Below, piece by piece: positions 2 to 63,278 of a DNA stretch of 64,000 nucleotides. Within the stretch, counting starts at the first letter, position 1, and each line of letters begins with the position of its first letter. The DNA comes from an uncultured virus (IMG/VR IMGVR_UViG_3300045391_005857). Taxonomy: Duplodnaviria; Heunggongvirae; Uroviricota; Caudoviricetes. Made by a program: the position numbers and the translations under genes. The DNA lies in IMG/VR virus record IMGVR_UViG_3300045391_005857; one strand, written 5' to 3'. The notes under the pieces are model-generated. The model ran no database searches. It was not told the origin of the DNA and saw only the letters and a list, made by a program, of their open reading frames with translations.

Positions 2-580
2 TCTAACGGTCGGCGGTTGGGCTGGCTTACTTACGGCGGGACGGAGTTGCCGCAGGTCGATTTTGCGAACGGCACCGCCTTGCACACGGCAGCCGAGTGG
101 GCTAGCGGGTGTGCATATCGCTCCCAGATGGACCTGAAGTTCGTTTTCAACGATCGCGAGGTCACCGTGAATCCGCTGACGACAGCAGCGGAGATCATGG
201 GTATGTGGTACGGCGAGGATACGGCGGAGGTTTTACAACCGCGGGGAATAGCGCTCAACGCTGTCAACCAGCACGGAGTGCCAATTACCGTGCAGAATCC
301 GACGCCCGGCGGTGTTATGGCCGACCGTGACGCAGCCGAAGAAGAAGCGGCCGATCGCGACTCAGCCGAAGAGGAAGATGTCGGCGACGTGCTCATGGTA
401 GCGGTGCCTACAGGAATGAATCGCCGCGTGCTTCAACAACTGGTCAGTCAGGTGATCGATATGTGGAACGTGGCCAAGATTCACGCCGAGGCCCAGCAGG
501 TGCGTGCCGAGACCGGTACGCCGCTGCCGACTGAGCGGACCCGTGCGATCGATCTGGGAGGTAGCGATGAACAGTCGTGA
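2..580 (+). CDS. Hypothetical protein, 5'-truncated by the window edge; C-terminal RTRAIDL tag
   Basis: Frame is open from position 2 to TGA 578-580; ends ...TERTRAIDLGGSDEQS. Confidence 0.7.
   Translation, partial: SNGRRLGWLTYGGTELPQVDFANGTALHTAAEWASGCAYRSQMDLKFVFNDREVTVNPLTTAAEIMGMWYGEDTAEVLQPRGIALNAVNQHGVPITVQNPTPGGVMADRDAAEEEAADRDSAEEEDVGDVLMVAVPTGMNRRVLQQLVSQVIDMWNVAKIHAEAQQVRAETGTPLPTERTRAIDLGGSDEQS
320..379 (+). repeat. Imperfect 30-bp tandem duplication (ADRDAAEEEA / ADRDSAEEED)
   Basis: gccgaccgtgacgcagccgaagaagaagcg followed by gccgatcgcgactcagccgaagaggaagat. Confidence 0.8.
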
Positions 581-1064
581 TGCCGATCTGATCTACCGCA
601 CGCAGCAAAGCCAGCTTACCTGGTACGAGCTGTGGGCCGCCGCCAAAAGCTGTGGCAAGGAGTTGCGGCAGGGCGCTGGCTGGACCAGCTACGGCGAGCC
701 GATCGGCACATTCATTTGCGATCCAAAAAACACGTACGCGCGGTTCACGCCGGGCGGCGAGGTGGATTTGCTGGTGATGTTGCAGCGGGTGCGCGATCAT
801 TCCATGGGGTCGGGCGTCAGCGTTATTATCGAGCTGCCGCTGATCCACTTGGAATTTCATCCCTGCCCGCACGCGCCGTCGGCCCAGCACATGGCTGGCG
901 AATACCGCAAGACGAAGGCCAAGCTGCGCGGCCGCGGCCTGGTGCCCGGCCGGCTACGGATGACGTTCGGCACGTACTCTCCCACGGGTTACAAAATGCC
1001 GCCCGGCGAAGCCGACGAGTCGCACCGCACCCGCGCGATCGACCTTACCAAATCTGGTACTTAG
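567..1064 (+). CDS. Hypothetical protein; C-terminal RTRAIDL tag
   Basis: ATG 567 preceded by GGAGG; ends ...HRTRAIDLTKSGT. Confidence 0.75.
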   Translation: MNSRDADLIYRTQQSQLTWYELWAAAKSCGKELRQGAGWTSYGEPIGTFICDPKNTYARFTPGGEVDLLVMLQRVRDHSMGSGVSVIIELPLIHLEFHPCPHAPSAQHMAGEYRKTKAKLRGRGLVPGRLRMTFGTYSPTGYKMPPGEADESHRTRAIDLTKSGT

Positions 1065-1071
1065 AAACCGA
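1056..1071 (+). promoter_or_regulatory. Dispersed motif GGTACTTAGAAACCGA, copy 1
   Basis: Spans stop TAG 1062-1064 and abuts ATG 1071; 20-nt identity with 14019-14038. Confidence 0.6.
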
Positions 1072-1601
1072 TGCCACGTAAGCACAGGTTCCTGTTGGAC
1101 CCCGAGCGGGCTGACCAAGCCGCGCGACTCAATGAGATGATTCGCGAGAGTCTGTGGGCTCCGTCCGGTGATCCGGACGATCCCTTACTGTTTGCGGCGG
1201 CCACGGCCTACAAACGCTTGAAGGAGCAACAGCTCCCGTGTCGCGACGAACAAGATGTGATCAACCAGCTTCGCCGCGACAACATCGAAGGGAAGGATTA
1301 CTTGGCGGACATGCCCAGCCCTCCGGCGACCACGGCCACGGCCGACGAGGTTCGCGAGCAGATCGAGGAGGCCTTCGCCCAGAAGGTCGCGGCGATGACC
1401 GAAGAGGAGGTCAAAGCCGAATATATCAAGCGGCGGACGGCCGCCAAGGTCTACGACGCCCGCAACAGTACCTCACTTGAGGAAGAGTTGCGTTTGTGCG
1501 TCGAGCAGCTCGCCGAGCACATGGCGATCGCCGCTATGCGGGACGAGCTTACCGACCCGGATTCACTGAATCAGACTTGTTTGAGCGAGTATTCATGGTA
1601 G
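1071..1601 (+). CDS. Hypothetical protein
   Basis: 176-aa ORF tiling between neighbouring genes. Confidence 0.7.
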   Translation: MPRKHRFLLDPERADQAARLNEMIRESLWAPSGDPDDPLLFAAATAYKRLKEQQLPCRDEQDVINQLRRDNIEGKDYLADMPSPPATTATADEVREQIEEAFAQKVAAMTEEEVKAEYIKRRTAAKVYDARNSTSLEEELRLCVEQLAEHMAIAAMRDELTDPDSLNQTCLSEYSW

Positions 1602-2885: not shown

Positions 2886-3141
2886 CGAGCTAGTCATCCC
2901 GCTCGTCAACGGCTGCAAACTGTGTTGCGGCGCCTGGGGCAGCCAGTTCGGCGGCGACGTCACGATTCGCGACGCCGACGGCAATGAGATTCTGCACTGG
3001 GTCGCTACCGAGTGGGAGGAGGAGCCCGAGCTGGTCATGGGTGCGATCTTCGGCGCTGCCTCTGCTACGAAGGAAGAGTTGCTGGCCGGCCGCGTCCTCG
3101 AAGACGGCTGCTGGAACTACCGCGGAGGCCACGTCGTATGA
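2842..3141 (+). CDS. Hypothetical protein, apparent paralog of 7926-8198
   Basis: GGGAG upstream; shares IPLxNGC...GD...D..G pattern with 7926-8198. Confidence 0.7.
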   Translation: MAKGVLRRPKLLEDDELVIPLVNGCKLCCGAWGSQFGGDVTIRDADGNEILHWVATEWEEEPELVMGAIFGAASATKEELLAGRVLEDGCWNYRGGHVV

Positions 3142-3968
3142 TCTGGCTGTTCGACAACCAGGATTGTCGCGTGGCCTTCGCGCGGGCATACGGCCATCAA
3201 AGTACGAACCACGTGCGGAAAGAGCACAATCCGCCCGGCTACGAAGCGATGCGGTTCAGTCGCTGGACGAAGCACCCTACGCTCGGGCCGTGCCTGGTGG
3301 GCTCGTTCCTGTCCGGCATCGGTATGTTCGACGTGCACTTTCCGATCATGGATGTCCGGGCAGCGACGCCCGAAGAGATGCACCATATCGTCACCGGCAA
3401 TTACGTCTGGGGCAGTGGCCGGGTAGATCACTACACGGCGACCGATTTTATCGGTATCGCCGAGCTGGGATTTATTCTTGGAACGGAGCACAAGCCGGAG
3501 TGCGAGGTCTCGCATCAGTACGATCCGCGACCGCCCGAGTTCGCGACGGACGACAGCAAGCACCTGCGGCCGTCGAAGCGTGCTATTCACCAGGCCGTGA
3601 GGAACGTGATGTACAACGAGCTGGGGCTTACACGCACCGGCATACGCGCGACGATGCAGATGATGGTCCAGCCGATCGCCGAGCAGTACATGGAAGAGCG
3701 GATGGCTTCGAAGTATTTCGAGGGCCTAATCCTAAACGCGCTGGTCGACTTGGTATGGCAGGAGCAACGACGGCCGGCGACAACGACTAGATATGTGCGA
3801 ACCGACTTCGCTGATCGGATTAGAAATCTAGTTGCCTCGACTGTCGCAGAGCTGGTGGGTAAGCACGTACGAATCGCGCTCAACATTACGCCCGAGCAAC
3901 TGGTCGAAGCCGGCCGGACCCGCGCGATCGATCTGGGCACCAACCGCGGCGAATCGGAAGGAGGGTAG
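3138..3968 (+). CDS. Hypothetical protein; C-terminal RTRAIDL tag
   Basis: ATGA overlap with upstream gene and GGAGG SD; ends ...GRTRAIDLGTNRGESEGG. Confidence 0.75.
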   Translation: MIWLFDNQDCRVAFARAYGHQSTNHVRKEHNPPGYEAMRFSRWTKHPTLGPCLVGSFLSGIGMFDVHFPIMDVRAATPEEMHHIVTGNYVWGSGRVDHYTATDFIGIAELGFILGTEHKPECEVSHQYDPRPPEFATDDSKHLRPSKRAIHQAVRNVMYNELGLTRTGIRATMQMMVQPIAEQYMEERMASKYFEGLILNALVDLVWQEQRRPATTTRYVRTDFADRIRNLVASTVAELVGKHVRIALNITPEQLVEAGRTRAIDLGTNRGESEGG

Positions 3969-7933: not shown

Positions 7934-8198
7934 GACGCTGGAAGAGTGCCGCGACAGCGATGGCGCGATCAGCATTCCGTTGGCCAATGGCTGCTGCATC
8001 CGCAGCGGCTTCTGCGATCCGTACGATCCCGATGTCCAGATCGCCGGCGATTGGCTGTCGGTCACCGACAATCACGGCCGGCAGTTGTTCTACGTTGAGT
8101 CGGCCGACCTGGCTGATATGGGCGTCGTCAAGGTGCGGCGAGCCTTACTGGAGATGGTGTGCGCGTGCTTAGGAGCAGCATGTCCGGAGACAGGTTAA
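7926..8198 (+). CDS. Hypothetical protein, apparent paralog of 2842-3141
   Basis: ISIPLANGCCIRSG...GDWLSVTDNHG. Confidence 0.65.
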   Translation: MAKTLEECRDSDGAISIPLANGCCIRSGFCDPYDPDVQIAGDWLSVTDNHGRQLFYVESADLADMGVVKVRRALLEMVCACLGAACPETG

Positions 8199-8491
8199 TA
8201 CACCGCATCGTCGCAAGCTGCGACGAGTGCCCATTCAAGAAGCTACAGCCGCTCGATCATTTGATGGATGGCGAAGATGACCACTGGCGGTGCAATCACT
8301 GGGATAGCGGTGGTTTTGTCATTGCAGAGGTCGGCACTGCCGAGGAGCTGGACCGGTGTGGCGACAGCGTGCAAATGCGGATCGGGAAGCCATTTCCCGA
8401 CCAATGCCCGCTGCCGCTAGCGAGTCCGGCGCTTACCGAGCCTATCGAACGGAGCCGGGTAGTGTCGCTACCGGACACCGATGGTGCGTGA
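8180..8491 (+). CDS. Cys-rich hypothetical protein; variant C-terminal tag RSRVVSL
   Basis: AGGAG SD; CDECPF...CNH...CPL. Confidence 0.65.
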   Translation: MSGDRLIHRIVASCDECPFKKLQPLDHLMDGEDDHWRCNHWDSGGFVIAEVGTAEELDRCGDSVQMRIGKPFPDQCPLPLASPALTEPIERSRVVSLPDTDGA

Positions 8492-9801: not shown

Positions 9802-10651
9802 CGGCAACCCCGCACTGCACCTCGGCGAGTTCTGGGAGGTGTTACCGGGCGAGCTGTGTCGCCCGACCGACGGCCTCGACCTGCGTCGCAGCTTCCGCTT
9901 CGGCACGAAGACCGAAGAGGGGCTTTACCAGGGCGACACCGATCTGGTGCCGATCGAGGTAGCTCCCGAAGTAGAAGTCATCTGGGCGTTCAATCCGGAT
10001 ATTGACCCACCGGCCGGCAAAACGCGACTGGAGCGGTTGAAGCCGGGGCAGTTGTTTTACTTCGAAGACGATGCGTTAAACTTCCAGCACGATTGGCGAT
10101 TGCAAGAGGCAGTCGAGCAGGGAGCCTTGCACACCGCACACCGCGACTGGATGGCTCCGCGTTTTGACCAGGCCCCTGTCACGCCGAGCCCGTTTGATTC
10201 GATCGTGGTGATCGTCCCGCAAATCGTGCCGCCGGATGAGGCCGGCGTGTGCGACGGCTGCGCCAACACCGGCTGGTACTACGACAACTGGAGCGGTGTT
10301 GCCGAGCGAATGCGAGAAGGCGCTCCGGCGATTACGTATTGCTCGGTTTGCCACATCGTCGAAAGTGCTACTGCGGCGGCGCGAATCGCCAGAGGGTTAG
10401 GGCTGGGTGCGACGTCGCCGGAGGTAGAGCCATTTCGCCAACGGCGGCGTGTGCATTACAGTTACACCGCCAAGATCAGTTTCAAATCGGATAACCCGCT
10501 AGGTATACCGGCCGTCGCGGTCGAACAAGCGATCTGGGACTTACTGTCGGAGAAATATCCGGAAGACATCCAGGTGTGCGTGCGGGCCGATCAGCCTACC
10601 ACCCCTCTACCACCGCCGACCGAGCGCAGTAGAGTAATCTCGCTCGACTAG
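9764..10651 (+). CDS. Hypothetical protein; C-terminal variant tag RSRVISLD
   Basis: 295-aa ORF with CDGC and CSVC; exact start uncertain. Confidence 0.65.
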   Translation: MLTMSRIYQSASDGNPALHLGEFWEVLPGELCRPTDGLDLRRSFRFGTKTEEGLYQGDTDLVPIEVAPEVEVIWAFNPDIDPPAGKTRLERLKPGQLFYFEDDALNFQHDWRLQEAVEQGALHTAHRDWMAPRFDQAPVTPSPFDSIVVIVPQIVPPDEAGVCDGCANTGWYYDNWSGVAERMREGAPAITYCSVCHIVESATAAARIARGLGLGATSPEVEPFRQRRRVHYSYTAKISFKSDNPLGIPAVAVEQAIWDLLSEKYPEDIQVCVRADQPTTPLPPPTERSRVISLD

Positions 10652-19099: not shown

Positions 19100-20571
19100 T
19101 CGACGTCAGTCCCGACGGGTTCAGCCCGTTGCCTCGGCAGATCGGCGAGTTGTTGATGCCGCTGCTGACGTATCAGTACAAGAAGCTGCTGCGTGGTGCC
19201 GAGGCCTTCGATTACGCCACGGGCGATCGGCACCACATTCAGATCGAGAACCGCTATCTCTACACGATGGAGCAAGGCCGGCTGACGACGGGCTACGGGT
19301 TTATCCCGGCGTTCATGCAGACGCTGCAGCGGTATGGGCACGAGGTTCATGTCGTGGACATCAGCCCGCCCCGCGAGCGACCCAATTGCTATGAGCCCGA
19401 CTGGGATGCGCTCTACAAGGCCTTCCAGTTCCGTCCGCGACAAGAGGAGTGCATCCAATTGATTGCCTCGCTGGAAGGCGGTGTGATCAAAGCGGCGCCT
19501 GGTTTCGGCAAGACCGAGATCATCGGGATGGCGGGCATCTTGTTCCCCAACGCCAACATCCACGTCGTCGTTAAACCGGTGGACGTCGCCAAGCGCATCG
19601 TGCGACGGTTGACGCGGTTCTTTCCCAACGTGGGGCAGGTCGGCGGCGGCAAGCGGACGATGGGGCGAGTCACGGTCTTCACCGGCGACAGCTTGCACCT
19701 GTCCGATTGCGACGCAGACTTCCTGATGGCGGACGAAGGGCACATGTTGATGCCCGACACCTACGCCGAGCAGCTCTCGCGGTATCGGATCACCAAGAAC
19801 TTCACGTTCTCGGCGACGCCGCATACCCGCATGGATGGCACGAGCGCTCGGATGCAGATGTTTTTCGGGCCGGTCATCTTCGATCTGCCGTATGCGGAGG
19901 CCGTGGCTCTCGGGCTCACGGTGCCGATCAAGGTGCGGTGGCTTGACATCGCCCTCGACCACAATCCGGCCGACGAAAAGACCGGCACGGCCAAGGATCG
20001 TTGGGGCATCTGGCGGAACGCTGATCGCAACGCAATCATCGCCCACGATATCCATACCAACAACGGCGACCCCAATAAGCAGGTCCTCGTGCTGTGCGCC
20101 ACGTTCGAGCACGCGGTCAATCTCTGGCAGCACTTGCCCGAGTTCGAGCTGTGCTACGCCCCCAAGGACGAGGCCGAGATCGAAGGCTACATCCGTTCGC
20201 GGATGCTGCCCCGCGGTTTCATTCCGATGACGCCGCAGCGTCGCGACGCGATGCGGGCCGGCTTCGAGGCGGGCACCTTGAAAAAGGTGATCTGCACCGA
20301 TGTCTGGTCAACTGGGGTCGATTTCGAACAGCTTCAGGTGTTATACCGAGCAGACGCTCGCGAGTCCGAAGACCTCGACACACAGGGTCCCGGCCGCACG
20401 TCGCGTATTTTCGAAGGTAAGGAGTACGGCGAGGTGGTCGATTGTTTCGATCGTTTCGATACGGGGTATCGCCGCAAAAGCGAAACCCGTCGGCGACACT
20501 ACAAGACCAACGAGTGGGAGCAGGTGGATTGGCCGCTCGGACGCGGCCGTCGCCAAATCAGCCATGCCTAG
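19066..20571 (+). CDS. Superfamily 2 helicase (UvsW/XPB-like)
   Basis: RPRQ, APGFGKT, DEGH, SATP, STGVD, QGPGRTSR. Confidence 0.88.
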   Translation: MQIIIRRSGTLIDVSPDGFSPLPRQIGELLMPLLTYQYKKLLRGAEAFDYATGDRHHIQIENRYLYTMEQGRLTTGYGFIPAFMQTLQRYGHEVHVVDISPPRERPNCYEPDWDALYKAFQFRPRQEECIQLIASLEGGVIKAAPGFGKTEIIGMAGILFPNANIHVVVKPVDVAKRIVRRLTRFFPNVGQVGGGKRTMGRVTVFTGDSLHLSDCDADFLMADEGHMLMPDTYAEQLSRYRITKNFTFSATPHTRMDGTSARMQMFFGPVIFDLPYAEAVALGLTVPIKVRWLDIALDHNPADEKTGTAKDRWGIWRNADRNAIIAHDIHTNNGDPNKQVLVLCATFEHAVNLWQHLPEFELCYAPKDEAEIEGYIRSRMLPRGFIPMTPQRRDAMRAGFEAGTLKKVICTDVWSTGVDFEQLQVLYRADARESEDLDTQGPGRTSRIFEGKEYGEVVDCFDRFDTGYRRKSETRRRHYKTNEWEQVDWPLGRGRRQISHA

Positions 20572-21280
20572 AGAGCATCGTGCGATCGATCTTGATCCTA
20601 CTCTGGCTGGGACGGCTGAGCCGGTTCCGGAGAATGGGATCACCGAACAACTTGGCAGGTACGTGCGATCGGTCTATATCGGCTGCTATCGCGAGTACAC
20701 TGGGAAGTTCGAGTACGGCCTGACCCACATGGCGAGCTGGGATGGCGGGGAAGACAGCTTCGGCCGTCGCCATCGTCCCGTCTGGCCAAAAATCGCCGAG
20801 AAAATCATCCACCTGGGTGTGGACCCGATCCTGTTTATTCGTGGGCAATTTTGGTGTCGGCGGGATGACACGCGTCCCCCCTTGCCGACCTACCTCTTGA
20901 GCGATGAGGCCGAGGCGCGTTATCGTGCCTACCTTCAGCAGGCTCCCGCCGTAGCGCAAACTGAGTACGAGGCGGACCTGCGGATGGTACAGACGGAAGT
21001 TCTGCTGCTGACCTCACGGTTGGGATGGGAGTACAAGCGGGCGCTGCGTTACGCATTGAGTAGCGTGGTCACGGTGCAGGCCTCTGCATTGTTCAGATTC
21101 TGCTTGGCTGCCGCCGAAGGATTGTGGGATTTAGCGCAGCACTTTCACGATCAAGCGTTGCTACAGTACGTCTTCCAACAGGAGGTTTTGGATGTGGCCT
21201 GGGGTGCCCGCATTCCGCTCGCGCTGCGCGAGGAATGTCTGCGCCTGCGAGCCGCCATCCTGGGGAGGGCAATAGCATGA
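20564..21280 (+). CDS. Hypothetical protein; N-terminal REHRAIDL tag
   Basis: ATG 20564 overlaps the helicase stop; begins MPREHRAIDLD. Confidence 0.7.
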   Translation: MPREHRAIDLDPTLAGTAEPVPENGITEQLGRYVRSVYIGCYREYTGKFEYGLTHMASWDGGEDSFGRRHRPVWPKIAEKIIHLGVDPILFIRGQFWCRRDDTRPPLPTYLLSDEAEARYRAYLQQAPAVAQTEYEADLRMVQTEVLLLTSRLGWEYKRALRYALSSVVTVQASALFRFCLAAAEGLWDLAQHFHDQALLQYVFQQEVLDVAWGARIPLALREECLRLRAAILGRAIA

Positions 21281-33612: not shown

Positions 33613-34545
33613 ATGGTTACACGTCAAAGGAGCATCCGCATGGGTCGATCCTCTCTACGTTCGCGCGCGATGAAAGCCACGATTCAGCCGTCGGCAGTCA
33701 TCGCCAGCCGCAAGTCGGCATTGAGACTGATGAATAAAAAGCTGCTGGCCAAGCTCCAGCAGATCGAATCGGGCATGGCAAGTGCCCGTACCAACAACCT
33801 CCGCTGGTATTACGAGTTGGGCGAGGTCGTTCGCACGATCCGCGACAACAACGACGAATATGCCGGCACCGACGGCACGAACGGCTTGAAGCTCATCGAG
33901 CAGGCGCTGTCGACGCAGGCCCGCACGTTGCGGCGGGCGGCGACGTTCCGCGAATCGTTCACCGCCGCCGAGTTCGAGCGGCTGATCGGTTTGGAGAACA
34001 CCGAGACCAAGTTCCAGTTGCACTGGGGTCATATCAACTACCTGCTGACCGTCGAGGACCACGACGATCGCTGGCGATTTGCCGTCACGGCCTGCGAGAA
34101 GATGCTTTCGCCGCCCGAGCTGCACGCCCACATGAAGCGGCGCCTGGGCCGTAGCCGCGGCCACGGCCGGCGGCACAAGGTGCCGGAGACGCTCCGCGGT
34201 CAGCTCACTCAGGTCGAGCAAGCCACGACGACGTGGAACACCAAACAAGCCCAGGTGTGGGATGGTGACGACGTCAACGTGATGTCGAACCTGATGAAGG
34301 CCAGCCCCGATGACGTCGATCAGGAATTCGTCGATAACTTGAAAACAGCGCGGGCCGGCTTCCAGGAGATGGCCGAGAGCGCTGCCAAGAACGTCGAGCG
34401 GTTCGACCGCATCATCGAGCGGTGCGAGAAGATGCTCAAGACGAAGCAGCAGCAGGCTGTCGCGACGGCTGCGGCCGAAGCGAACGCCGGCAAACGCACG
34501 CGGGCGATCGACATCGGTAGCTCGCCGCGTCGCAAAGCCAGTTAA
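33613..34545 (+). CDS. DUF1016/YhcG N-terminal-like DNA-binding protein; C-terminal RTRAIDI tag
   Basis: WYYELG and LHWGHINYLLTVEDHDDRWRF...LSPPEL pattern; start may be 33640 (AAGGAG SD). Confidence 0.6.
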   Translation: MVTRQRSIRMGRSSLRSRAMKATIQPSAVIASRKSALRLMNKKLLAKLQQIESGMASARTNNLRWYYELGEVVRTIRDNNDEYAGTDGTNGLKLIEQALSTQARTLRRAATFRESFTAAEFERLIGLENTETKFQLHWGHINYLLTVEDHDDRWRFAVTACEKMLSPPELHAHMKRRLGRSRGHGRRHKVPETLRGQLTQVEQATTTWNTKQAQVWDGDDVNVMSNLMKASPDDVDQEFVDNLKTARAGFQEMAESAAKNVERFDRIIERCEKMLKTKQQQAVATAAAEANAGKRTRAIDIGSSPRRKAS

Positions 34546-51078: not shown

Positions 51079-52014
51079 ATGACCGCCGCAGCCCCCGCCC
51101 AGCGTTTTGCTCTCGACCCGTTCTTTGATGGTGATGGCGGCAACGTCCGCACGCCTCTCGGCGCCCCTGTGCCCGGCACGGAGAACTACCGCGACATTTC
51201 CACCGAGCGACTGGCCAACGATCGTACGATCGCCGATCGGATTCCCCACCGTAACGATGGTATTCGCGGAGTGGTCATTCCGCACGCTACACCGGGCGGC
51301 ACGGTACGCGGTATTCGCCCCAATGATCTCAACGGCGTGCAGATCGTCGTGGACCCGCATATCGAAGGGCAGAGCGCTGTGCTCGACTTGGGCCAGATGA
51401 CGCCCGCGTTGATGGACCAGGCCACCAACATGGCGGCCCAGATGACGCCCGAGCCCGACTCGATTCAGACTCAGCGGCTCCGCGGCTCGGCGGCGATGCA
51501 CGGCGTCGCGGCGCTCAACGGCGGCAGCCGGCGAACGATCTCGCAAGGCCCGGCCACGATTCCCTCGCCCAACCTGGGGCGGATGGGTCAGCCAGTGCCC
51601 CGCAACGTGCGGCCGCTACAGGCCTTCGCACAGCAGCCGCAGCCAGTGTATGAAAACGGCAGTCGCGAGCTGCGGGCGATCGACATCGGCGCGCCAACCC
51701 GGCAGATTCCTACGATCGCGGCGCCGACGATGCAGGTCTTGTTCGAGATCGAGCACTTCGGCACGCACGAGGCGGTCTACCACGATGTGCTGGTGGGCGA
51801 GGCGTTCATCGTGCTGATCTATCGCACGGATTATCAGGGCAGCAAGTATTTTCCCGAGAATCGGGATGTCAAAGCACCACCCCTGGCGCTTATGATCCAG
51901 GGCCAGAGCAAGGCTTATCTGGTGCATACCACCGGAGTTCGCTATGTTTACGAGGGCAATGAGCACTGTGTGCTCCTCGTCGAGCGTGTAACAGACATGC
52001 CACCGGAGGGCTAA
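51079..52014 (+). CDS. Hypothetical protein; internal RELRAIDI tag in a linker
   Basis: AGGA SD; 311 aa. Confidence 0.75.
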   Translation: MTAAAPAQRFALDPFFDGDGGNVRTPLGAPVPGTENYRDISTERLANDRTIADRIPHRNDGIRGVVIPHATPGGTVRGIRPNDLNGVQIVVDPHIEGQSAVLDLGQMTPALMDQATNMAAQMTPEPDSIQTQRLRGSAAMHGVAALNGGSRRTISQGPATIPSPNLGRMGQPVPRNVRPLQAFAQQPQPVYENGSRELRAIDIGAPTRQIPTIAAPTMQVLFEIEHFGTHEAVYHDVLVGEAFIVLIYRTDYQGSKYFPENRDVKAPPLALMIQGQSKAYLVHTTGVRYVYEGNEHCVLLVERVTDMPPEG

Positions 52015-52211: not shown

Positions 52212-54248
52212 ATGTCGGACATGATGGTCCATACCCTTGGCGAAAAGGCCATGGGTTCCCGCGCCAACGAGCACTTCCCCAGTCCGTGGTACGACTATGC
52301 GTCGATGGTGTTCCCCAACACCATTCAAGACGCCCTGCGGGCTTGCGAGGACATCCTTTCCGCCAACGGTACCTACCGCGAAGCGCTCCGCCGGATCATC
52401 TCCTATTTCGTCACCGACGTCGAAGTCACCTCGACCAGCGGCGACATCCTGGGCACCGACGAGAAGGATAAGTACGAGACCTTTCTCGATGACATCATTG
52501 GCGTCAAGAAGGTGCTGATGACGGTGGCGATGGACTTCCTGACCTATGGGAATTCCTTCACCAGCTTGATCATCCCGTTTCGTCGCTACTTGAGCTGCCC
52601 GTCGTGCGGTCTCGAAGCGCCACTCCGGCGTATTTACAATACGCCGGAATTCAAATTTAGCTGGGTCAATTTCGAGTTTCACGCCGAATGCCCACAGTGC
52701 GGTCACCACGGCAAGTTCAACCACATCGATCGTCGCTCACACGAGCAGGACTCGATCCACGTCAAGCGCTGGAACCCGCACGAGATCGACATCCTGTGGG
52801 ACCCGTACACCGACGAGACGTCGTACATCTGGAAGATCCCCGAAGAGTATCGCTCGCTGATTCGTCGCGGCCATCTCTTCCACCTGGAGCGAGCGAGCTG
52901 GGAGATCATTCAGGCGGTCAAGAACAACCAATACCTGTTGTTCGACAAAGACGTCGTCTACCACATGAAGGAAGAGGCGCTGGCCGGCATTCGCAACCGC
53001 GGCTGGGGTATCAGCCGCGTGCTGGCCAACTTCCGTCAAGCGTTCTACGTGCAGGTGCTGCATCGCTACAACGAAGCGATCGCCCTGGACTACGTGATTC
53101 CATTCCGCGTCATCACTCCGCAAGCGCGGCAAGGTGAGGCAGGCGGAGCAATGGACCCGGCCCTCAGTATCGGCATGGGCGGCTTTGTCTCGCGGGTGCA
53201 GAGCATGATCGGCCAACGCCGACGTGATCCGGCTCGCTGGAACATCCTGCCCTTCCCGATTGAGTACCAGGCCCTGGGTGGCGATGCTACACAGCTCGCC
53301 CCCAAGGATTTACTTGAGTTCGGCATGAACAACTTGCTGGCAGCCGTCGGCATCCCGGTCGAAATGTACCAGGGCAACATGTCGATGCAGACCGCCATGC
53401 CGATGATGCGGATGTTCGAGGCGTATTGGGCTCAGCTCACGCACTATCTCAACCAGTTCCTGTCGAAGCTGGTGGAGAAGATTGCTCAGCTTATGTCGTG
53501 GGAGCCCGTGACGTGCAAGCTGCAGCGGACCAAGCACGCCGACGACCTCAATCGCCAGATGGCTCAGCTCCAACTCATGATGGGCGGCCAAATCTCCAAG
53601 ACGACGGGCCTCAAAGCTCTCGATATGGAGTTCCTCGAAGAAGTGCGTCGCAAGTTGCAGGAGCAAAAACTGGAGCAGGAAGAGACGCAGAAAATCCAGA
53701 AGCAAATGGAGCAAGCCAGCGTCCAGGACGAGATGGCGCAAGGCGGCGGTCAGCAGCAACAGCAGCAAGGTATGCAGCAGCCTGGCATGCAACCAGGCAT
53801 GGACCCCTCGCAACAACAGCAAATGGGTCCGATGGGTCAGCCTATGGGCCCGGGCGGAGCTGCGCAAGGCTTCGCGGCGATGCAGCCCACGCCGCCCAAT
53901 CAACCTACGACGCCCGAAGAAATGCAGAACAAGGCACAGACGATCGCCGAGCAGGCGATGATGATGCCCGAGAGCCAGAAGGATTCGTTCCTCATCCAGC
54001 TAAAAAAGACCGATCCTACGATGTCGTCATTAGTCCGCTCGATTCTCGAAGGGATGCGACGCGACGCAGCACGACAGGGTCAGGATATGGTTATGCAGCA
54101 GCAGTTTGGCCAGGGCGGCGGGGGCGGCGATCCTTCGCAAGGCGGCGCCAAGCAAGGTGCGGCCCGATTGCCAAGAGGCTCTGCGCGCCGTTTGTATCAG
54201 TGTGCCAGGGAAGCCGGGACTCGCGAACTTCGTTCGATCGAGCTATGA
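52212..54248 (+). CDS. Probable portal protein with Zn-finger insertion, Q/M/G-rich tail and terminal RELRSIEL tag
   Basis: DFLTYGNSF, CPSC...CPQC insert, RWNPHEI, GWGISRV...NEAIALDYVIPFRVITP, AVGIPVE pattern of large-phage portals; GGAGG SD. Confidence 0.62.
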   Translation: MSDMMVHTLGEKAMGSRANEHFPSPWYDYASMVFPNTIQDALRACEDILSANGTYREALRRIISYFVTDVEVTSTSGDILGTDEKDKYETFLDDIIGVKKVLMTVAMDFLTYGNSFTSLIIPFRRYLSCPSCGLEAPLRRIYNTPEFKFSWVNFEFHAECPQCGHHGKFNHIDRRSHEQDSIHVKRWNPHEIDILWDPYTDETSYIWKIPEEYRSLIRRGHLFHLERASWEIIQAVKNNQYLLFDKDVVYHMKEEALAGIRNRGWGISRVLANFRQAFYVQVLHRYNEAIALDYVIPFRVITPQARQGEAGGAMDPALSIGMGGFVSRVQSMIGQRRRDPARWNILPFPIEYQALGGDATQLAPKDLLEFGMNNLLAAVGIPVEMYQGNMSMQTAMPMMRMFEAYWAQLTHYLNQFLSKLVEKIAQLMSWEPVTCKLQRTKHADDLNRQMAQLQLMMGGQISKTTGLKALDMEFLEEVRRKLQEQKLEQEETQKIQKQMEQASVQDEMAQGGGQQQQQQGMQQPGMQPGMDPSQQQQMGPMGQPMGPGGAAQGFAAMQPTPPNQPTTPEEMQNKAQTIAEQAMMMPESQKDSFLIQLKKTDPTMSSLVRSILEGMRRDAARQGQDMVMQQQFGQGGGGGDPSQGGAKQGAARLPRGSARRLYQCAREAGTRELRSIEL

Positions 54249-54257: not shown

Positions 54258-55100
54258 ATGCGTGCCGATTTAGCGCCTATTGGGCTCCTCACTCGCAACC
54301 GCCATGTCTACCTGGACGCTACGTTGCGATCGCTGTCGGCCACCGGTTTGCCAGCTAAGCAACCGGTCATTGTTTTCGATGATGCTAGCGACGAACAAGC
54401 AACGGTCGCTTATCTGTACGGTTCCAGTCTGATCCCGGCCGGCGATCCGTGGCCGCGAGTGCCCGCCTGGGGACCGCTGGGGCTCGATATCCTGTGGAAA
54501 CAATATCGCTCGCCCCACGGCCTGCTTGGTAAAGTCGCCGTAGAGCGGCTCGGAGGCACGCCCCTGGGCGTGGTTAATGCCTCCTGTCAGATGATCTGCC
54601 GGCTGTTTAAGCGTTATCCAGACGCCCCGGGCGTGATCCTGTTGCAGGATGACGTGATCTTCAACCACGACTGGTACATGCAGATGCTGATTAACGCCGG
54701 CCGTACGGAAATGGGGCCGATCGGGCTGCTATCAGGCTGCCGGCTCAATAAGCCGCTGAAAACCGAATACGCCAAGATGTCCTTGTTGCGGCTCACTCAC
54801 TCGACGACGGCCCAGTGCTTGTACCTGGCCCGCGAGGCTTATGAGCGCGAGAAGGAGTGGTTCTCCTCGGAACATAACTTACGATCGGGGTTTGATAATC
54901 ATCTTTGTACGACGGTCCGTCGCAGCGGGCACGTTGTGTGTATGACCAATCCGGCCGTGTGTCAGCATACGGGCCTGCTCTCACTCGTACGGCCCAAGCT
55001 GGGCTGGCACGCACGAGGCAAACGCGGACGGATCAGTTACGAGGCCAGGCCGCCGTATGTCCTGGCTGACCGAATTAAAACATTTGCACCATGCGAGTAA
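54258..55100 (+). CDS. Glycosyltransferase family 2-like (GT-A)
   Basis: TRNR..YL..TLRSL, VFDDAS, LLQDDV, CQHTG. Confidence 0.72.
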   Translation: MRADLAPIGLLTRNRHVYLDATLRSLSATGLPAKQPVIVFDDASDEQATVAYLYGSSLIPAGDPWPRVPAWGPLGLDILWKQYRSPHGLLGKVAVERLGGTPLGVVNASCQMICRLFKRYPDAPGVILLQDDVIFNHDWYMQMLINAGRTEMGPIGLLSGCRLNKPLKTEYAKMSLLRLTHSTTAQCLYLAREAYEREKEWFSSEHNLRSGFDNHLCTTVRRSGHVVCMTNPAVCQHTGLLSLVRPKLGWHARGKRGRISYEARPPYVLADRIKTFAPCE

Positions 55101-55948: not shown

Positions 55949-56976
55949 CTGCAATTGGATTCTGCACACGTTATTACAGTCACGAAGCCACCTACGCAGC
56001 GTTAATCCTAGCGAACTGGGCAGCAGCACAGCACCACGACGTTTCCTTCTTCTCGGCTACCCGTAAGTTCGCCGGTATCGACAGTCGCTGGGACCCTGTC
56101 GTGCGCGCGTCGCGAGGCAAGCCCTTTACGACCTGGGCGGACGCGCAAGACGTCGTAGTTTGGACGCACTGCCCGCATATTGAGCAGCTCGAATGGTGTC
56201 GTAATGAGGGTAAGCACACGGTTCTGTTTTCGCTGTGGCACGAGTTCGAGCCCTGGCAACGCGACACCTTTCGGGCGGCCGACGTTGTGCTCTCGCCCAG
56301 TGAGATAGCGGCCCACATGCTGCAAAGCCGTTGGCAGGTGGGGCGATCGATACCGCTCTGGCTTGACCCCGGTCTGCCGCTGTTCAACAAGCACGAAGAA
56401 CGCACCGCTCCCAAGCTCTTGCTGCCGCTGTGGGATGGTGCGGCGCGTCGCATTGAGATGACAATGCTGGAGCTGCTCGATCGCATGCTGGAGCTGCACG
56501 ACGTAGGTCTCACGGTGACTTACAGCTCCAGCACGCTGGCTGGTCACGCTTATGAACGAATCAAGACCCTGCGTCGCAAATATGGGCCTCGCGTCCAGTC
56601 GCTAGCTGGCACACCGTGGCGAGACCGGCCGCTGGTCTATCAAACGCACGATCTCACGCTCTGGCCGGCCCACGCCGAGAGCACTTGCCTGACGCCGCTG
56701 ATCTCGCTGGCGATGGGGACGCCTCTCATTTGCTTCGCCGTGCCGCCCATGCACGAAATCTTGAATCAGGGGAATTCCTACTTGGTGCCCTGCGGCGTGG
56801 ACTATACGCCGGCCGGGGCCGCTGTGTGCCATCCGGACTACAGCCGGTTCGAGGAAACCCTGCACGAAGGGTTGAAAAACGAAACAGGGCTGCGTATGCT
56901 CCAACAGTGTACGGGGGATGGCTTCGCGGTCCGCCGCGGTCTATTCTCGGAAATACTGACACGCGTTTTTTGTTGA
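55945..56976 (+). CDS. Glycosyltransferase GT-B (GT4-like), putative
   Basis: ADVVLSPS; YQTHDLTLWPAHAESTCLTPLISLAMGTPLI...PMHEIL resembles the GT4 C-terminal motif, in degenerate form. Confidence 0.65.
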   Translation: MTAIGFCTRYYSHEATYAALILANWAAAQHHDVSFFSATRKFAGIDSRWDPVVRASRGKPFTTWADAQDVVVWTHCPHIEQLEWCRNEGKHTVLFSLWHEFEPWQRDTFRAADVVLSPSEIAAHMLQSRWQVGRSIPLWLDPGLPLFNKHEERTAPKLLLPLWDGAARRIEMTMLELLDRMLELHDVGLTVTYSSSTLAGHAYERIKTLRRKYGPRVQSLAGTPWRDRPLVYQTHDLTLWPAHAESTCLTPLISLAMGTPLICFAVPPMHEILNQGNSYLVPCGVDYTPAGAAVCHPDYSRFEETLHEGLKNETGLRMLQQCTGDGFAVRRGLFSEILTRVFC

Positions 56977-58118: not shown

Positions 58119-58518
58119 AAGGGAAGTCGTGCTCTGCCTGTCAGAGCTGCGGACGATCCTTCTCAACACGTTTGCGCTTGCCGGTTACTATTTCCGCGAC
58201 CCCGGGCAGCTTGGTTGGCGAACGACCATTGAAGACGATGACGACGAGCGGGGGCTGGCACTGACGGTGCGGGTAACCCACCCAATCGAATCGCGAGTCG
58301 TTGCTTGCTGGGTCACTGATCGCAGGGCTGCCGAGCACGTACTACGGTTCCACATCGACACGATGGAGTATTCGTATCGTGGCGAGAACCCGTTGGTGGG
58401 GCCGCCTACGACGCTGCTGCCGCCGGATATAATCACCGTCGGCGAGATGCCAGTGCGGCAGGCGGATGTAACTCGCGACGACAATGGCGGCCGCGAGCTG
58501 CGGTCGATTGATTTATGA
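58090..58518 (+). CDS. Hypothetical protein; C-terminal RELRSIDL tag
   Basis: Ends ...NGGRELRSIDL-stop. Confidence 0.7.
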   Translation: MNDLDVRAPRREVVLCLSELRTILLNTFALAGYYFRDPGQLGWRTTIEDDDDERGLALTVRVTHPIESRVVACWVTDRRAAEHVLRFHIDTMEYSYRGENPLVGPPTTLLPPDIITVGEMPVRQADVTRDDNGGRELRSIDL

Positions 58519-59486
58519 CAATGACAGAAGCCGTGATCAGCTTGGCGGCGATAGCGGGCGCTGCTGCCATATTGTTTTGCCTGTTTTCAGATTTGCCGCT
58601 GCGTTGGCTTGCGCGTCGTAGTCTCGATGCAGCCACCGATGCCGCGGTAGCACGCGACGCGGCCAGACTGCCGATTGTCGATCAACGCCTGCGACAACTG
58701 GATAATAGCCTGACTCAGTTCGCCGGCGACGCGCTCTCGCGAGTGGATCAACAGATGGGCGAGCTGGAGCGGGTAATCGAGCAGAACGTGGGTCAGCAGC
58801 TCGCCACGATGCTGACACCGCCCCAGCAAATCTCGGTTATCACATCGCACCCAGAGCCGGTCTCGGTGATCACATCGCACCCGCCGGCGATGACCACGCT
58901 GGCATCCGGGACTACGTTCGTGCGGGACTTGTCGCCCCAGGTATTGGGCCGGCCGTTCGAGACAGCCCACGTTACCGGCCGCGTGGTCGCCACACCGCCG
59001 GTGTCCGTCCAGCCGCCCTGGAACCCGCCCGGGATGCGACTGCCGAGCCCGTTCAAGACGGCCTTTGACTCCGACGCCATCTTCAAGCAGCAAAAAGACA
59101 TGCGGACACACGACATTGGCCTGCAGTCCCTACTCGACGCTGTCTTCCAGGCATTGTGGGACCTGCACCAGGTGGGCGGCGATCGGTTCGGGGATTGGGA
59201 CCGCACTAAGTTCGTGGTCAATTTTGGCACTCCGCCCAAGGAGTCCGAGCGGCGATTCGTGTTTACCTTCACGTTCCCCGTCATCGATCGGTTCGAGGTT
59301 TTCCGCACGACCACCCCCGACTTTGGCCCGGCCTGGCATATCACCTCGCAAAAGCTCAACCTTGCGGTTACAGTATCTGGCAGTAACCCGCGGTTGATGG
59401 TTCCGGCGTCCCTCTCGGACACGCCAAATAGCGAACCGACGGTTGATACCGACGGTCGCGAGCTGCGGGCGATCACCTTGGATTAA
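58515..59486 (+). CDS. N-terminally membrane-anchored protein; C-terminal RELRAITLD tag
   Basis: Hydrophobic AVISLAAIAGAAAILFCLF, then coiled coil; ATGA overlap. Confidence 0.75.
   Translation: MTMTEAVISLAAIAGAAAILFCLFSDLPLRWLARRSLDAATDAAVARDAARLPIVDQRLRQLDNSLTQFAGDALSRVDQQMGELERVIEQNVGQQLATMLTPPQQISVITSHPEPVSVITSHPPAMTTLASGTTFVRDLSPQVLGRPFETAHVTGRVVATPPVSVQPPWNPPGMRLPSPFKTAFDSDAIFKQQKDMRTHDIGLQSLLDAVFQALWDLHQVGGDRFGDWDRTKFVVNFGTPPKESERRFVFTFTFPVIDRFEVFRTTTPDFGPAWHITSQKLNLAVTVSGSNPRLMVPASLSDTPNSEPTVDTDGRELRAITLD
58831..58890 (+). repeat. 30-bp imperfect tandem duplication (SVITSHP x2)
   Basis: tctcggttatcacatcgcacccagagccgg / tctcggtgatcacatcgcacccgccggcga. Confidence 0.8.
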
Positions 59487-59489
59487 ATC

Positions 59490-60536: not shown

Positions 60537-60555
60537 GGCCGCCAATAGGTGATGC

Positions 60556-61221
60556 ATGCTTTTCTTTGTGTTCGAAGGTATTGATGGCAGTGGCAAATCG
60601 ACCCAGCTAGAACTCTTCAAGCAATTCGTTGAAGAGAAACTCAAGCGGCCCACGTTCTACCTGCGAGACCCGGGTGCCACAGAAGCCAGCACGGCGATCC
60701 GGAGAATCCTCCTCGACCCTAAGTTGCCGTTGACGCCGCTCGGGCAGACGCTGCTCTTTACGGCCGCACGCTGCGAAGCCTGCCAGCTCATAAAGGAGCT
60801 GGACCCCAGCACAATCATTCTGGCCGATCGCTGGGTCTGGTCGACGCTGGCGTATCAGTCGGAAATGGGCAGTGTCTCCCCAGACCTGATCAAGGACCTG
60901 CACCTGCAATACTGCCGTGAGCCCGAGCCCACAATGTGCTTCTTGATCGATTGTGACCCCGCGATTGCTGGCCAACGCAAGATCGACGCCTGCCAGAAGG
61001 CCAACATGCCTCGCGATCGCTTCGAGTTGAAGCCACTGGAGTGGCGAATGGAGCTACGCAGCGCATACGAGCGCGTCGCCGGGCGGTATTACGACTGGCT
61101 CCCGATGATGTATAAGATCGATGGCGAGAAACCGGCCGACGTCGTAGCCGCCTATGTCCGCAGCGCTGCGACGCAAGGCTCCAACGAATTTGCTCAGGCC
61201 CTAGCCCAACTATCGTTATGA
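60556..61221 (+). CDS. tmk: Thymidylate kinase
   Basis: FEGIDGSGKSTQ, RDPG, LLFTAAR, ADRWVWSTLAYQ, DRFE. Confidence 0.93.
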   Translation: MLFFVFEGIDGSGKSTQLELFKQFVEEKLKRPTFYLRDPGATEASTAIRRILLDPKLPLTPLGQTLLFTAARCEACQLIKELDPSTIILADRWVWSTLAYQSEMGSVSPDLIKDLHLQYCREPEPTMCFLIDCDPAIAGQRKIDACQKANMPRDRFELKPLEWRMELRSAYERVAGRYYDWLPMMYKIDGEKPADVVAAYVRSAATQGSNEFAQALAQLSL

Positions 61222-62135
61222 TCCACCTCGCGATCCGCACGCTCACCTCCATCGTCACGATTCCGCTGGGCACGTTCTCAGTGAAGCCGGTAGGCCCTTT
61301 CGGTGTGCCAGTGGCCGGAGTCCCCTATCACGCCTGGCAGCGAGCCGCCACCTGGCTCTTGTTGATGGAGGCCAACCCTGACGACGGGCCGGCTGCATTC
61401 ACTACCGGGCCATTCGTCATCGCGTCGCTGTTTTCCGAAGAAGCCGGGCATAAGATCCTCACCCGCATCTGGTCACAAGTATCCGGCTCCGAATCCCATA
61501 TCCACGATCGTACGATCTGCGTGGGTATCGAGGACCTTATGAGTGTCGATCGCGAGGCGCGGATGGCGTTAATCGAGGCCAACGCACGCCTCAACCAGGA
61601 ACGCACGCGAGCTATCGACCTGGGTGGCGACAAAGACGAATCGCCGGCCGCGGTTGCGCCCATCACCGACGGCATTCCGATGGTGAGCTACCACGACTGG
61701 CACCGCCAGCAATATACCAAGGCTACGGCAGAGGACGCTCTATTCGACGGCACGGGCCCAATGACTGGTAGCCGCGTTTACGCTGGCGATGCTCCGCCTG
61801 CCGGAGCCCGCGGACGCCGGCTGGGCACCGTGTCGATGGGCAGCGCCCGCGCTATGGAGTCGCCCGGCCGAGCGATCAATGACTTCGTAGGCGTCACCGC
61901 GATCGGCGCTGGCGGCGGCATGCCCAACGCCAATGAGGACGTATTCGTAGGCGGCGGTGGTGCCGGCGACGGCGGTATGGGTGGCGGTGCCAGCGGTGGT
62001 AGCAATGGCTTCGCCAGTCTAGGCGGTGGTGGGTTCGTCGGCACAGAGGCAGGCTACGCTGAAACGATGCAGCCCGCGCGGCACGAAGACCCGGATATGG
62101 CCCCGATCTTCACAGGGCCGCCCCATCAGCCTTAA
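61218..62135 (+). CDS. Hypothetical protein with Gly-rich tail; internal RTRAIDL tag
   Basis: ATGA overlap; 305 aa. Confidence 0.7.
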   Translation: MIHLAIRTLTSIVTIPLGTFSVKPVGPFGVPVAGVPYHAWQRAATWLLLMEANPDDGPAAFTTGPFVIASLFSEEAGHKILTRIWSQVSGSESHIHDRTICVGIEDLMSVDREARMALIEANARLNQERTRAIDLGGDKDESPAAVAPITDGIPMVSYHDWHRQQYTKATAEDALFDGTGPMTGSRVYAGDAPPAGARGRRLGTVSMGSARAMESPGRAINDFVGVTAIGAGGGMPNANEDVFVGGGGAGDGGMGGGASGGSNGFASLGGGGFVGTEAGYAETMQPARHEDPDMAPIFTGPPHQP

Positions 62136-62386
62136 TTGGCGTTTAGCATCGCCAGCTCGGCGACCGCTTCCGCCGAAATCTCGTCGAGCCGCTGAATCTT
62201 CAGGGACGACTGCCGGCCGTTGGGCGACATCACGAGGATCGTGACTTCGTCCTCACCCTTCTGCTCGGCCTTATCGAGAGCGGCGCCCAAGGCGCGCACG
62301 GCCGACCGGTTCAGCGCGAGCCGGGGCTCAGCGCAGGCGTGACCAGCGTCTCGCAGGTCGACCAGAGGTGTGAGGGTTGCGGACAT
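62132..62386 (-). CDS. Hypothetical protein
   Basis: AGGA SD on the minus strand; convergent overlap of TAA stops. Confidence 0.55.
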   Translation of the reverse strand: MSATLTPLVDLRDAGHACAEPRLALNRSAVRALGAALDKAEQKGEDEVTILVMSPNGRQSSLKIQRLDEISAEAVAELAMLNAN

Positions 62387-62471
62387 GGTTAGATCATCCT
62401 ATGCAGGTTGGTGTCGCCTCCCTGCTGGATTGGTTTCAAAGTCTATGCGGCCGCACGAGTTGTGGCTAGAC

Positions 62472-63278
62472 CTACTCGGCCGGCTTGTAGTCCACGATGC
62501 CCATCGCAGCCAGCGCTTGACCGCGACTGATCATGCCACGCTCCTGGATTTGGGAGAGCGCTTGCATCTGCTCGTGCGACAACTGCGACGCGCGCGGGGT
62601 GGCAGCCACATGAGCCACAACCTCCAGTGAAGGTTCGGCCACATTCGCCAGATCGGGCTCAACGATGAAGCTCATCGGCTGCACGGTCTCGTGGTCCCAG
62701 TTGCCCCATTCGTTGCGGTAGATGCCGGGCGGCAACGACAGCGGATAGTCGGGCTGCGCGGACGGTGTTCCTACGATCGGTTCACCCAATTGGTGGTTGT
62801 AGAACTCGTTCGCGGCTCGCTGCCGGGCGACCTCGTCCACCAGGCCGGTATAGTCGCGGGTCCACCGGCGATCTCGCATCGTCCTATTGGTCCCGGCCGC
62901 CGGAGCCGAAGCTCCTGGCGGCAGGCCCAGTGGTTGAGGAGCTGCGGGAGCCACGCCGCGGGCTCGATCGGCCGCCTCTTGTTGCCGCTGCATCTCCTGA
63001 ACGAACGCCTGCTGCAGAGCACTTGCCGTGCCCGTGGGCTTCGGCGGCATTGGCTTAGAGGCCACGGGCGGCTTATCACGCCGCTGGAGCGATTCACAGC
63101 CGCAATACCGGCACAGGCAACCCTTTAGGCTCTCACCAAAGGGGGCTGGCGTCCCCTTTGGAATCTCCGCACCCGCCTGGTCGCCACAGTTGACGCACAG
63201 GGTGACAACCTTGTAGGTCGTTTGCTCGTCATTGGCCCCGCCGCTGATGTCGATCGACCGCAATTCTCTTTCTGCCAT
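62472..63278 (-). CDS. Hypothetical Zn-finger protein; N-terminal RELRSIDI tag
   Basis: AAGGA SD; MAERELRSIDIS; CVNC...CRYC. Confidence 0.72.
   Translation of the reverse strand: MAERELRSIDISGGANDEQTTYKVVTLCVNCGDQAGAEIPKGTPAPFGESLKGCLCRYCGCESLQRRDKPPVASKPMPPKPTGTASALQQAFVQEMQRQQEAADRARGVAPAAPQPLGLPPGASAPAAGTNRTMRDRRWTRDYTGLVDEVARQRAANEFYNHQLGEPIVGTPSAQPDYPLSLPPGIYRNEWGNWDHETVQPMSFIVEPDLANVAEPSLEVVAHVAATPRASQLSHEQMQALSQIQERGMISRGQALAAMGIVDYKPAE

Follow-up and report, generated by a model that had tools for sequence, protein, structure and literature searches.

The window analysed here, a stretch of 64,000 nucleotides from an uncultured virus of the Caudoviricetes (IMG/VR record IMGVR_UViG_3300045391_005857), has a guanine-plus-cytosine (GC) content of 59-63% and carries nearly all of its coding sequences on the plus strand. 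Family searches with its 75 proteins showed the window to be the part of a large, very divergent phage genome that serves replication and nucleotide metabolism, with recognisable genes for SbcCD, two helicases, a primase, PolA, a UvsX/RecA-like protein, ThyX, a DNA methylase, Tmk, an HldE-like enzyme and a CsrA homologue. No match was obtained when 12 kb of the window was compared with 50,697 phage records by megablast. The 678-amino acid (aa) protein encoded at 52212-54248 is the portal: it matched phrog_64 weakly, aligned with the annotated portal of Salmonella phage Arash in tblastn (E = 1e-54), and the Foldseek matches listed for its structural model were all portal or neck structures of phages or archaeal viruses. 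About one in six proteins of this region, the portal among them, carries a short peptide that reads R-x(1,2)-R-[AS]-I-D-[LI] in the window and is referred to below as the tag. An earlier note, made from the sequence of the window, had listed 13 copies of this peptide and proposed that it recruits many proteins to one hub.

Translation of the window confirmed all 13 peptides at the positions and on the strands listed. Nine of them, all on the plus strand, finish 0-10 residues before a C-terminus. RTRAIDL is found 7 residues before the C-terminus of the protein at 2-580 (tag at 536..556), 5 residues before that of the 165-aa protein at 567-1064 (1026..1046) and 10 residues before that of the 276-aa protein at 3138-3968 (3915..3935), the latter two proteins having no family match. 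The variant RSRVVSL (8450..8470) follows a Pro/Thr/Glu linker and stands 6 residues before the C-terminus of a 103-aa protein (8180-8491), and the variant RSRVISL (10625..10645) follows a Pro-rich linker and stands 1 residue before the C-terminus of a 292-aa protein (9773-10651). RTRAIDI (34495..34515) lies 9 residues before the C-terminus of the 301-aa protein at 33640-34545, which matched DUF1016_N weakly. The last 8 residues of the portal are RELRSIEL (54222..54245), those of the 129-aa protein at 58129-58518 are RELRSIDL (58492..58515), and RELRAITL (59457..59480) ends 1 residue before the C-terminus of the 321-aa protein at 58521-59486, the N-terminus of which is hydrophobic.

Two of the 13 copies are N-terminal, starting at residue 3 or 4. 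REHRAIDL (20570..20593, plus strand) occupies residues 3-10 of the 238-aa protein at 20564-21280, downstream of a helicase gene, and RELRSIDI (63246..63269, minus strand) occupies residues 4-11 of the 268-aa protein at 62472-63278. The remaining two, both on the plus strand, are internal: RELRAIDI (51664..51687) at residues 196-203 of a 311-aa protein (51079-52014) and RTRAIDL (61602..61622) at residues 129-135 of a 305-aa protein (61218-62135). A weak fourteenth candidate, RNRHVYL (54294..54314, plus strand; residues 13-19 of the 280-aa protein at 54258-55100), fits a looser pattern only and may be due to chance. The tag carriers belong to no common family, and none except the portal has a convincing family match. 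A 39-kb metagenome contig that matches the left end of the window exactly adds 1.7 kb upstream and completes the first open reading frame (ORF), giving a protein of 230 aa, and adds no further tagged gene; an exact-match search with the right end among viral contigs gave no match.

The tag is far more frequent than expected. Six-frame translation of the window gave 11 matches to R.{1,2}R[AS]I[DET][LI], each of which is read in frame within a long ORF, with no off-frame match, in line with the earlier claim that every listed copy is in frame. The bare core R[AS]I[DET][LI] returned the identical 11 sites, and thus R-x(1,2) precedes every core. Enrichment was calculated for the 75 window proteins (19,373 aa) with 2000 per-protein shuffles; 10 strict copies instead of 11 are counted in this set because one ORF was called from a later start codon. 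The core occurred 10 times against 0.21 expected (shuffle maximum, 3) and the strict pattern 10 times against 0.03 expected (shuffle maximum, 1), so the peptide exceeds both the off-frame and the shuffled controls that had been proposed for it. The window proteins contain 35 [AS]-I-[DET] tripeptides, 10 of which have both R before and L/I after them (about 0.34 expected); of the others, 3 have L/I only, 22 have neither, and R alone was found in none. Counting the two R-S-R-V-[VI]-S-L variants, 11 of the 13 copies lie at most 10 residues from a terminus, which bears out the terminal bias noticed before. The 17 residues upstream of the tags are composed to 71% of P, G, S, T, D, E, N, Q, K or A, versus 58% proteome-wide.

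Several observations place the selection on the peptide and not on the DNA. Between copies, as previously remarked, four codons are used for Arg (CGT, 3; CGC, 2; CGG, 5; CGA, 1), two for Asp (GAT, 4; GAC, 5) and six for the last residue, and the minus-strand copy encodes the same residues with AGA GAA TTG. The two DNA repeat families that include tags (D3 and D8) span the tag and a few upstream codons only; within the RELR sub-type, 12 identical bases are found in three copies. Some DNA words are over-represented in the window, namely CGATCG (127 occurrences vs about 21 expected, about 6-fold) and GATC (522 vs 228, about 2.3-fold), and GCGATCGC occurs 18 times. The CGATCG/GATC bias extends over the whole window and resembles HIP1-type palindromes or a signature related to methylation or restriction; the window has a gene for a DNA N6/N4 methylase (44412-45245). 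GCG-ATC-GA, the codons of A-I-D, may be favoured by the CGATCG excess, which however cannot account for the R and L/I on either side. The codon variation, the restriction of the copies to the coding frame and the DNA similarity that stops at the tag together disfavour a cause at the DNA level.

The portal is the sole tag carrier that was modelled. The predicted local distance difference test (pLDDT) of its model exceeds 90 up to residue 633 and falls to 33-55 over a tail of about 45 residues (634-678) that ends in the tag. The tag is thus short and enriched, lies in a flexible segment in the modelled carrier, and is common to non-homologous proteins whose orthologues keep it (see below). Judged from these sequence features, it is a short linear motif (SLiM) shared by unrelated proteins and selected at the peptide level.

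For comparison, related phages (G001-G007, G009, G018 and G019) were collected from IMG/VR and protein collections. Single-protein queries with PolA and with an ATPase of G001 recovered G001 alone, and further loci were found with alignments. The relatives form a large clade of uncultured phages whose longest records are about 190-230 kb, and those that keep the tag are about 110-226 kb. G001 (210,569 bp) is syntenic with the window from 8 to 58 kb; G002 and G003 are likewise syntenic, and the portals of these three phages are 52-64% identical. A portal identical to that of the window is listed in the protein collection for a contig of about 119 kb. C-termini were surveyed for the looser pattern R-x(1,2)-R-x-[IV]-x-[LIVMF], allowing it at most 15 residues from the end. 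Observed and expected numbers were 9 and 0.36 for the window, 12 and 1.55 for G001, 8 and 0.35 for G002, 9 and 0.79 for G003 (plus 7 N-terminal copies), and 6 and 1.13 for G005; G006 had 1 such C-terminus and G004, G007 and G009 had 0 each, without enrichment. In the window and its relatives, 0-18 residues trail the tag.

Orthologues of five carriers (the proteins starting at 20564, 33640, 51079 and 58521, and the portal) keep the tag while its flanks, its sequence or even its position change, as would be expected from the earlier note. The N-terminal tag of the 20564 protein is kept in G003, where the orthologue begins MREHREINL, and in G001, where it begins MEYQRSVIL. Orthologues of the 33640 protein have a C-terminal tag in G001 (RSIRM), G002 (RAINL) and G003 (RQIDL) and lack it in G006, G007 and G009. 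The tag of the 51079 protein is internal in the window versus N-terminal in the G003 orthologue (MTERNRIVQLD), and the G003 relative of the 58521 protein ends REHRVIQLDDIEVEK. The portal is tagged in G001-G006, while the portals of a large sister clade end QQFGQGQPPG and are tagless; R-x-[IV]-x-[LIVMF] was present in the last 15 residues of 53 of 120 portal homologues. PolA, primase, SbcCD, ThyX, Tmk and HldE of the window carry no copy of the tag, so that the statement that the recognisable enzymes are untagged holds in the window; it does not hold in G001, where SbcD and a DnaB-like helicase are tagged.

Each genome has its own flavour of the tag. The window and G018 use R-A-I-D-L, G002 and G003 use R-x-I-x-L-D, G005 uses R-I-V-D-T and G004 uses R-P-V-D-T (the portal included in both), G007 uses R-R-I-V-P-V and G009 uses R-R-V-M-R-L. 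Identity over 4 tag positions was 0.79 within genomes versus 0.69 between genomes (permutation p ≤ 0.0002, with a loose and noisy regular expression). If a single reader co-evolves with the tags, proteins without homology are expected to change together in just this way.

The same peptide was found as the C-terminal tail of an AAA+ ATPase in the relatives. None of the window proteins matched PF00004 (AAA ATPase), and the tail could not be seen by the earlier reader because the ATPase module lies outside the window. The ATPase of G001, which is split by contig ends, ends RTRAIQTDGGEKEAALN, and the adjoining protein ends RQLRYLNI. An ATPase with a tail of a basic residue followed by R-x-[IV]-x-hydrophobic is present in G001-G003 and G018, and a further homologue, P0128, ends RARAIDLGNN. 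In 83 of 120 ATPase homologues, the final 15 residues include R-x-[IV]-x-[LIVMF], with the consensus R-[AS]-V-D-[VL], and 67 of the 120 have a final N. In G018, a 59-kb fragment with a GC content of 0.603, like that of the window, the ATPase ends RERAVDLDN, and five neighbours in the module end GRECRAIDLG, GRELRGIDI, TRELRAIMLD, KEARAIDL and GRTRSIDLAP. These endings are the two sub-types of the window, G-RELR-x-ID-[LI] and RTR-x-IDL. Tailed module neighbours were found in G018, G003, G002, G004, G005, G007 and G009. When the neighbours at 51 ATPase loci were clustered by BLAST, a DUF1257-like protein was present at 41 loci, a protein of about 64 aa at 39 and a protein of about 336 aa at 30; the tail was found in 25 of the 30 copies of the last, and the DUF1257-like and about 64-aa neighbours are without it. 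The module adjoins large structural-looking genes in G018, G019 and G001.

The AlphaFold model of the ATPase had a mean pLDDT of 91.7 and was aligned by Foldseek over its full length to Cdc48/p97 D1-D2 with a template modelling (TM) score of 0.66; the best PDB matches of the ATPase profile were VAT, Cdc48 and p97. According to the model, the protein is a two-tier Cdc48/p97-like ATPase in which the N half is a degenerate D1 and the predicted active tier is D2. The family is labelled SpoVK/Ycf46/Vps4-type by the sources, and a Protein Atlas search with the N half returned unnamed clusters only. The tail blocks of the ATPase had pLDDT values of 81 and 65, above those of the portal tail, a weak hint that this tail may pack on the ATPase itself. 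A complex prediction with residues 17-528 of P0128 and the last 45 residues of the 3138-3968 protein gave no usable answer (score, 0.00) and speaks neither for nor against binding. Assignment of the module to a listed defence system was rejected: PADLOC matched the ATPase to IetA and TRIP13 via the AAA domain only, and the module partners matched nothing. In a literature search at the level of titles and abstracts, no functional study of the ATPase module or of its tail was found.

Two further observations concern the surroundings of such ATPases. Where the window has ThyX and MazG-like genes, G001 carries a second, different AAA ATPase of 452 aa (L012:11071-12937, minus strand) adjoining a protein with a SEC-C motif. 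Small proteins with N-termini resembling the CsrA homologue of the window are encoded near the ATPase modules of G018 and G019; the gene of the window homologue itself (13366-13581; E = 2.7e-25) is on the minus strand.

The ATPase family is also found in cells. Among its bacterial and archaeal homologues (identity, 31-37%), GGRTLDF, GERKLEL, GGRLVDF and YQRMEF are frequent endings, and a neighbouring ORF with the same ending was found at 9 of 79 cellular loci. On a contig of a rumen bacterium (L330, 284-8363), seven paralogous membrane HHH_3 (ComEA-like) proteins, all ending ER-x-[ILV]-D-[LIF], are followed by a Fer4_12/radical-SAM protein and an ATPase with the ending GGRTLDF, and then by a protein of 175 aa and one with DUF2997. 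Microbacterium (L291) and Dactylosporangium (L317) have pairs of a similar kind.

From these observations, we favour with moderate confidence the explanation that the tag is a docking motif for one reader tied to the Cdc48-like ATPase module. The tag, with the core R-x-[IV]-x-[LI], would then not be an invention of this phage; it would be an old C-terminal tail signature of the Cdc48-like ATPase family and of proteins encoded next to it. In the phage sub-lineage of the window, with genomes of about 200 kb, each genome would have acquired copies of this tail on about a dozen more proteins, including the portal, proteins of replication and recombination and many small ones without a known function; all of them would thereby be addressed to whatever reads the tail of the ATPase module. 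Because R, I and L alternate, the tag probably binds as an extended strand with the three side chains on one face. The most economical reader would be a constant member of the module, either the ATPase ring or the untagged DUF1257-like or DUF2997-like proteins. Between these, we tentatively point to the ring itself, to which clients would be tethered for remodelling or unfolding, with its own tail acting as a competitor or as a ring-to-ring contact. One of the two small untagged proteins is a more doubtful candidate, and the remaining probability falls to another phage protein or a host protein. A virus-encoded remodelling network is a speculative extension of this reading: the unfoldase would read R-x-I-x-L tags directly or via its DUF1257/DUF2997 partners, clients would be extracted, unfolded or handed over at a set time of infection, the tail of the unfoldase would serve as a built-in competitor, and the same logic would operate in cellular Ycf46-type modules of cyanobacteria, actinomycetes and archaea. 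We know of no substrate-selection rule for these cellular modules.

In its core, the earlier proposal of a SLiM that recruits many unrelated proteins to one hub is supported by the in-frame copies with their varying codons, the retention in orthologues, the genome-specific flavour and the low-confidence tail of the portal; the specific readers that it suggested found no support. The small heat-shock protein (sHSP) groove had been put forward among them. The HSP20 domain (PF00011) was found in 0 of the 75 window proteins and in 0 of five related records, two of them complete genomes, while 12 of 14 genomes were positive in a control search; there is therefore no basis for a reader in the form of a phage sHSP groove.

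Several points weigh against the docking explanation. Because the module is outside the window, its link to the tags rests on relatives; G001-G003 are connected to the window by synteny and portals, and G018 and P0128 by flavour only. The ATPase tail (R-A-V-D-L/V with a final N) differs from the client tags and from the portal tails of the same lineage (R-S-I-x-L). G007 and G009 have the ATPase and tailed neighbours, yet their portals and other proteins are untagged, and therefore the module alone does not explain the spread of the tag. The flavour statistic has a small effect size, and its loose regular expression admits chance matches. The count of tailed cellular neighbours comes from crude ORF calls and stands against a background of 33 in 2457 ORFs of at least 80 aa, ATPases included. 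Finally, binding of the tag, the identity of the reader and the consequences of binding are what we infer from sequence.

Instead of a phage-encoded reader, a host hub might read the tag. The substrate- or adaptor-binding domain of an AAA+ protease or a chaperone (ClpX N-domain, Lon, DnaK or an sHSP) would then allow the phage to time the degradation or folding of its proteins. The tag is tolerated at either terminus or in loops, as are degrons and chaperone sites, its basic-plus-hydrophobic character is reminiscent of ClpX-binding tails such as SspB XB and the C-terminal motifs of MuA, and the flavours that differ among phage lineages could track different hosts. However, widely differing bacteria, and archaea as well, have the same tail on members of the ATPase family and on their neighbours; a single host reader would have to be shared by both domains and at the same time differ between phages that are close relatives. 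We regard a host hub as not very likely.

A signal for incorporation into the capsid, analogous to the T4 capsid-targeting sequence and to the cargo-loading peptides of encapsulins, appears unlikely. By binding the scaffold or the inner capsid surface, the tag would bring the portal and other proteins into the procapsid, as parts of it or packed inside. The long flexible C-terminal tail that the portal tag terminates, the large structural-looking genes beside the module and the small size of several tagged proteins of no known function are consistent with such a role. The DnaB-like helicase and SbcD that are tagged in relatives, the tagged AAA+ ATPase, and the non-viral homologues in cells, which have membrane HHH_3 proteins as partners, are all unfit as capsid cargo, and a scaffold or capsid protein was not identified. 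Either capsid loading or a degron may apply, but each agrees less closely than does docking to the ATPase module with the presence of the tag in cells and on the ATPase.

It is highly unlikely that the tag is a recognition or cleavage site at which a phage maturation or prohead protease trims the ends of many proteins. Terminal tags with 0-10 trailing residues would suit such an enzyme, and portals are processed by the prohead protease in some phages; but four copies (54222, 58492, 59457 and 10625) end at or one residue before the stop, so that cleavage would remove almost nothing, the N-terminal copies start at residues 3-4, and scans of the 75 window proteins and of 135 of the 268 G001 proteins gave no match to a protease family. 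A signal at the DNA or RNA level, such as a regulatory site at gene boundaries or a by-product of the CGATCG bias, or mere chance, is close to refuted: the position of most copies near gene ends, the excess of CGATCG and GATC and the 12 bases shared by three RELR copies are in its favour, but all 11 strict copies keep one codon register with varying third positions, the copy on the minus strand is written with other codons, the enrichment of R and L/I on the two sides does not depend on the DNA core, and orthologues in genomes spanning 47-65% GC keep the peptide pattern.

Other features of the window were noted in passing. A 515-aa ORF (6171-7718, plus strand) has a LAGLIDADG_3 match at residues 273-315 (E = 3.9e-6) and is probably a homing endonuclease or an intein inside a gene; in G001, an RNA-polymerase-like gene and one other ORF contain LAGLIDADG/Hint inteins. 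The family-A DNA polymerase (24749-28024, plus strand) has an N-terminal domain of the uracil-DNA-glycosylase superfamily (residues 117-275, E = 5e-17). The 664-aa protein of the ORF at 28362-30356 contains Pro/Gly/Trp-rich, GGWGAPP-like sequence encoded by imperfect repeats of about 100 nucleotides (29609-29959, plus strand) and has no family match. An HldE-like heptose kinase/adenylyltransferase and glycosyltransferases are encoded at 11845-13230, 35057-35860 and 56101-56976, and many more in G001 (L005, L009), which suggests that DNA or virion proteins may be modified with sugars in this clade.

If a reader is found for the tag, it would supply a substrate-selection rule for an uncharacterised Cdc48-like machine, a list of clients that covers hundreds of uncultured large phages, and a portable recruitment tag. 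For annotation, the tag groups proteins of no known function into one functional network. The wiring of a hub and a tag is already textbook knowledge from clamp-binding peptides, p97 cofactor motifs and MIT-MIM pairs; here the same peptide is also the tail of an ATPase family widespread in phages, bacteria and archaea.

Several known systems resemble this arrangement in part. The T4-type capsid-targeting sequence is an N-terminal signal on packaged proteins that is removed by the prohead protease, whereas the tags are mostly C-terminal. The IXI/V motif of sHSPs, which binds the beta4/beta8 groove of the alpha-crystallin domain, shares with the tag an I-x-[IL] core, sometimes after Arg, on flexible C-terminal extensions; the tag, in contrast, tracks an AAA+ ATPase family and not sHSPs. 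Client peptides of sliding clamps, such as the gp45-binding C-termini of T4 and RB69 and the bacterial beta-clamp motif QL[SD]LF, are likewise short, are found at the N-terminus, the C-terminus or in a linker of many DNA-handling proteins, and are read by a ring-shaped hub. Unlike them, the tag has no Gln, has hydrophobic residues spaced i, i+2 after Arg, and is also carried by the portal and membrane proteins. A clamp-binding motif was rejected: the tag does not fit the consensus, and the clamp family was not found among the window proteins.

Closer likenesses are found among AAA+ ATPases. The proteasome-activating ATPases dock by HbYX/GQYL tails, with hydrophobic-Tyr-X at the extreme C-terminus, and there too the conserved C-terminal tail of an AAA+ unfoldase is shared with alternative partners of one docking site. 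A tail of this type was rejected, as the tags have no Tyr, penultimate or otherwise, and a free carboxyl end is unnecessary, given the N-terminal and internal copies; a proteasome or peptidase partner was not noticed in the module, in which no dedicated search for one was made. In Vps4, the MIT domain, an N-terminal three-helix domain, reads MIM motifs on the C-terminal tails of ESCRT-III. One AAA+ ATPase is thus addressed by several unrelated or paralogous clients through a short motif at a flexible C-terminus, as proposed here, but the model of the phage ATPase has no MIT-type domain, and the tag is strand-like with R, I and L, where MIM1 is helical, and also occurs at N-termini and in loops. 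The p97/Cdc48 system shares the AAA+ fold itself, as seen in the Foldseek alignment to D1-D2 and in the PDB matches. Its cofactor motifs VIM, VBM and SHP box bind the N domain, and its C-terminal tail is read by PUB/PUL domains; many unrelated partners with short Arg-containing linear motifs and a functional ATPase C-terminal tail are found in p97 as well. The phage ATPase differs in having no Cdc48-type N domain, its N half being a degenerate D1, and, if the tag binds as proposed, the partner motif and the ATPase tail would here be one and the same peptide.

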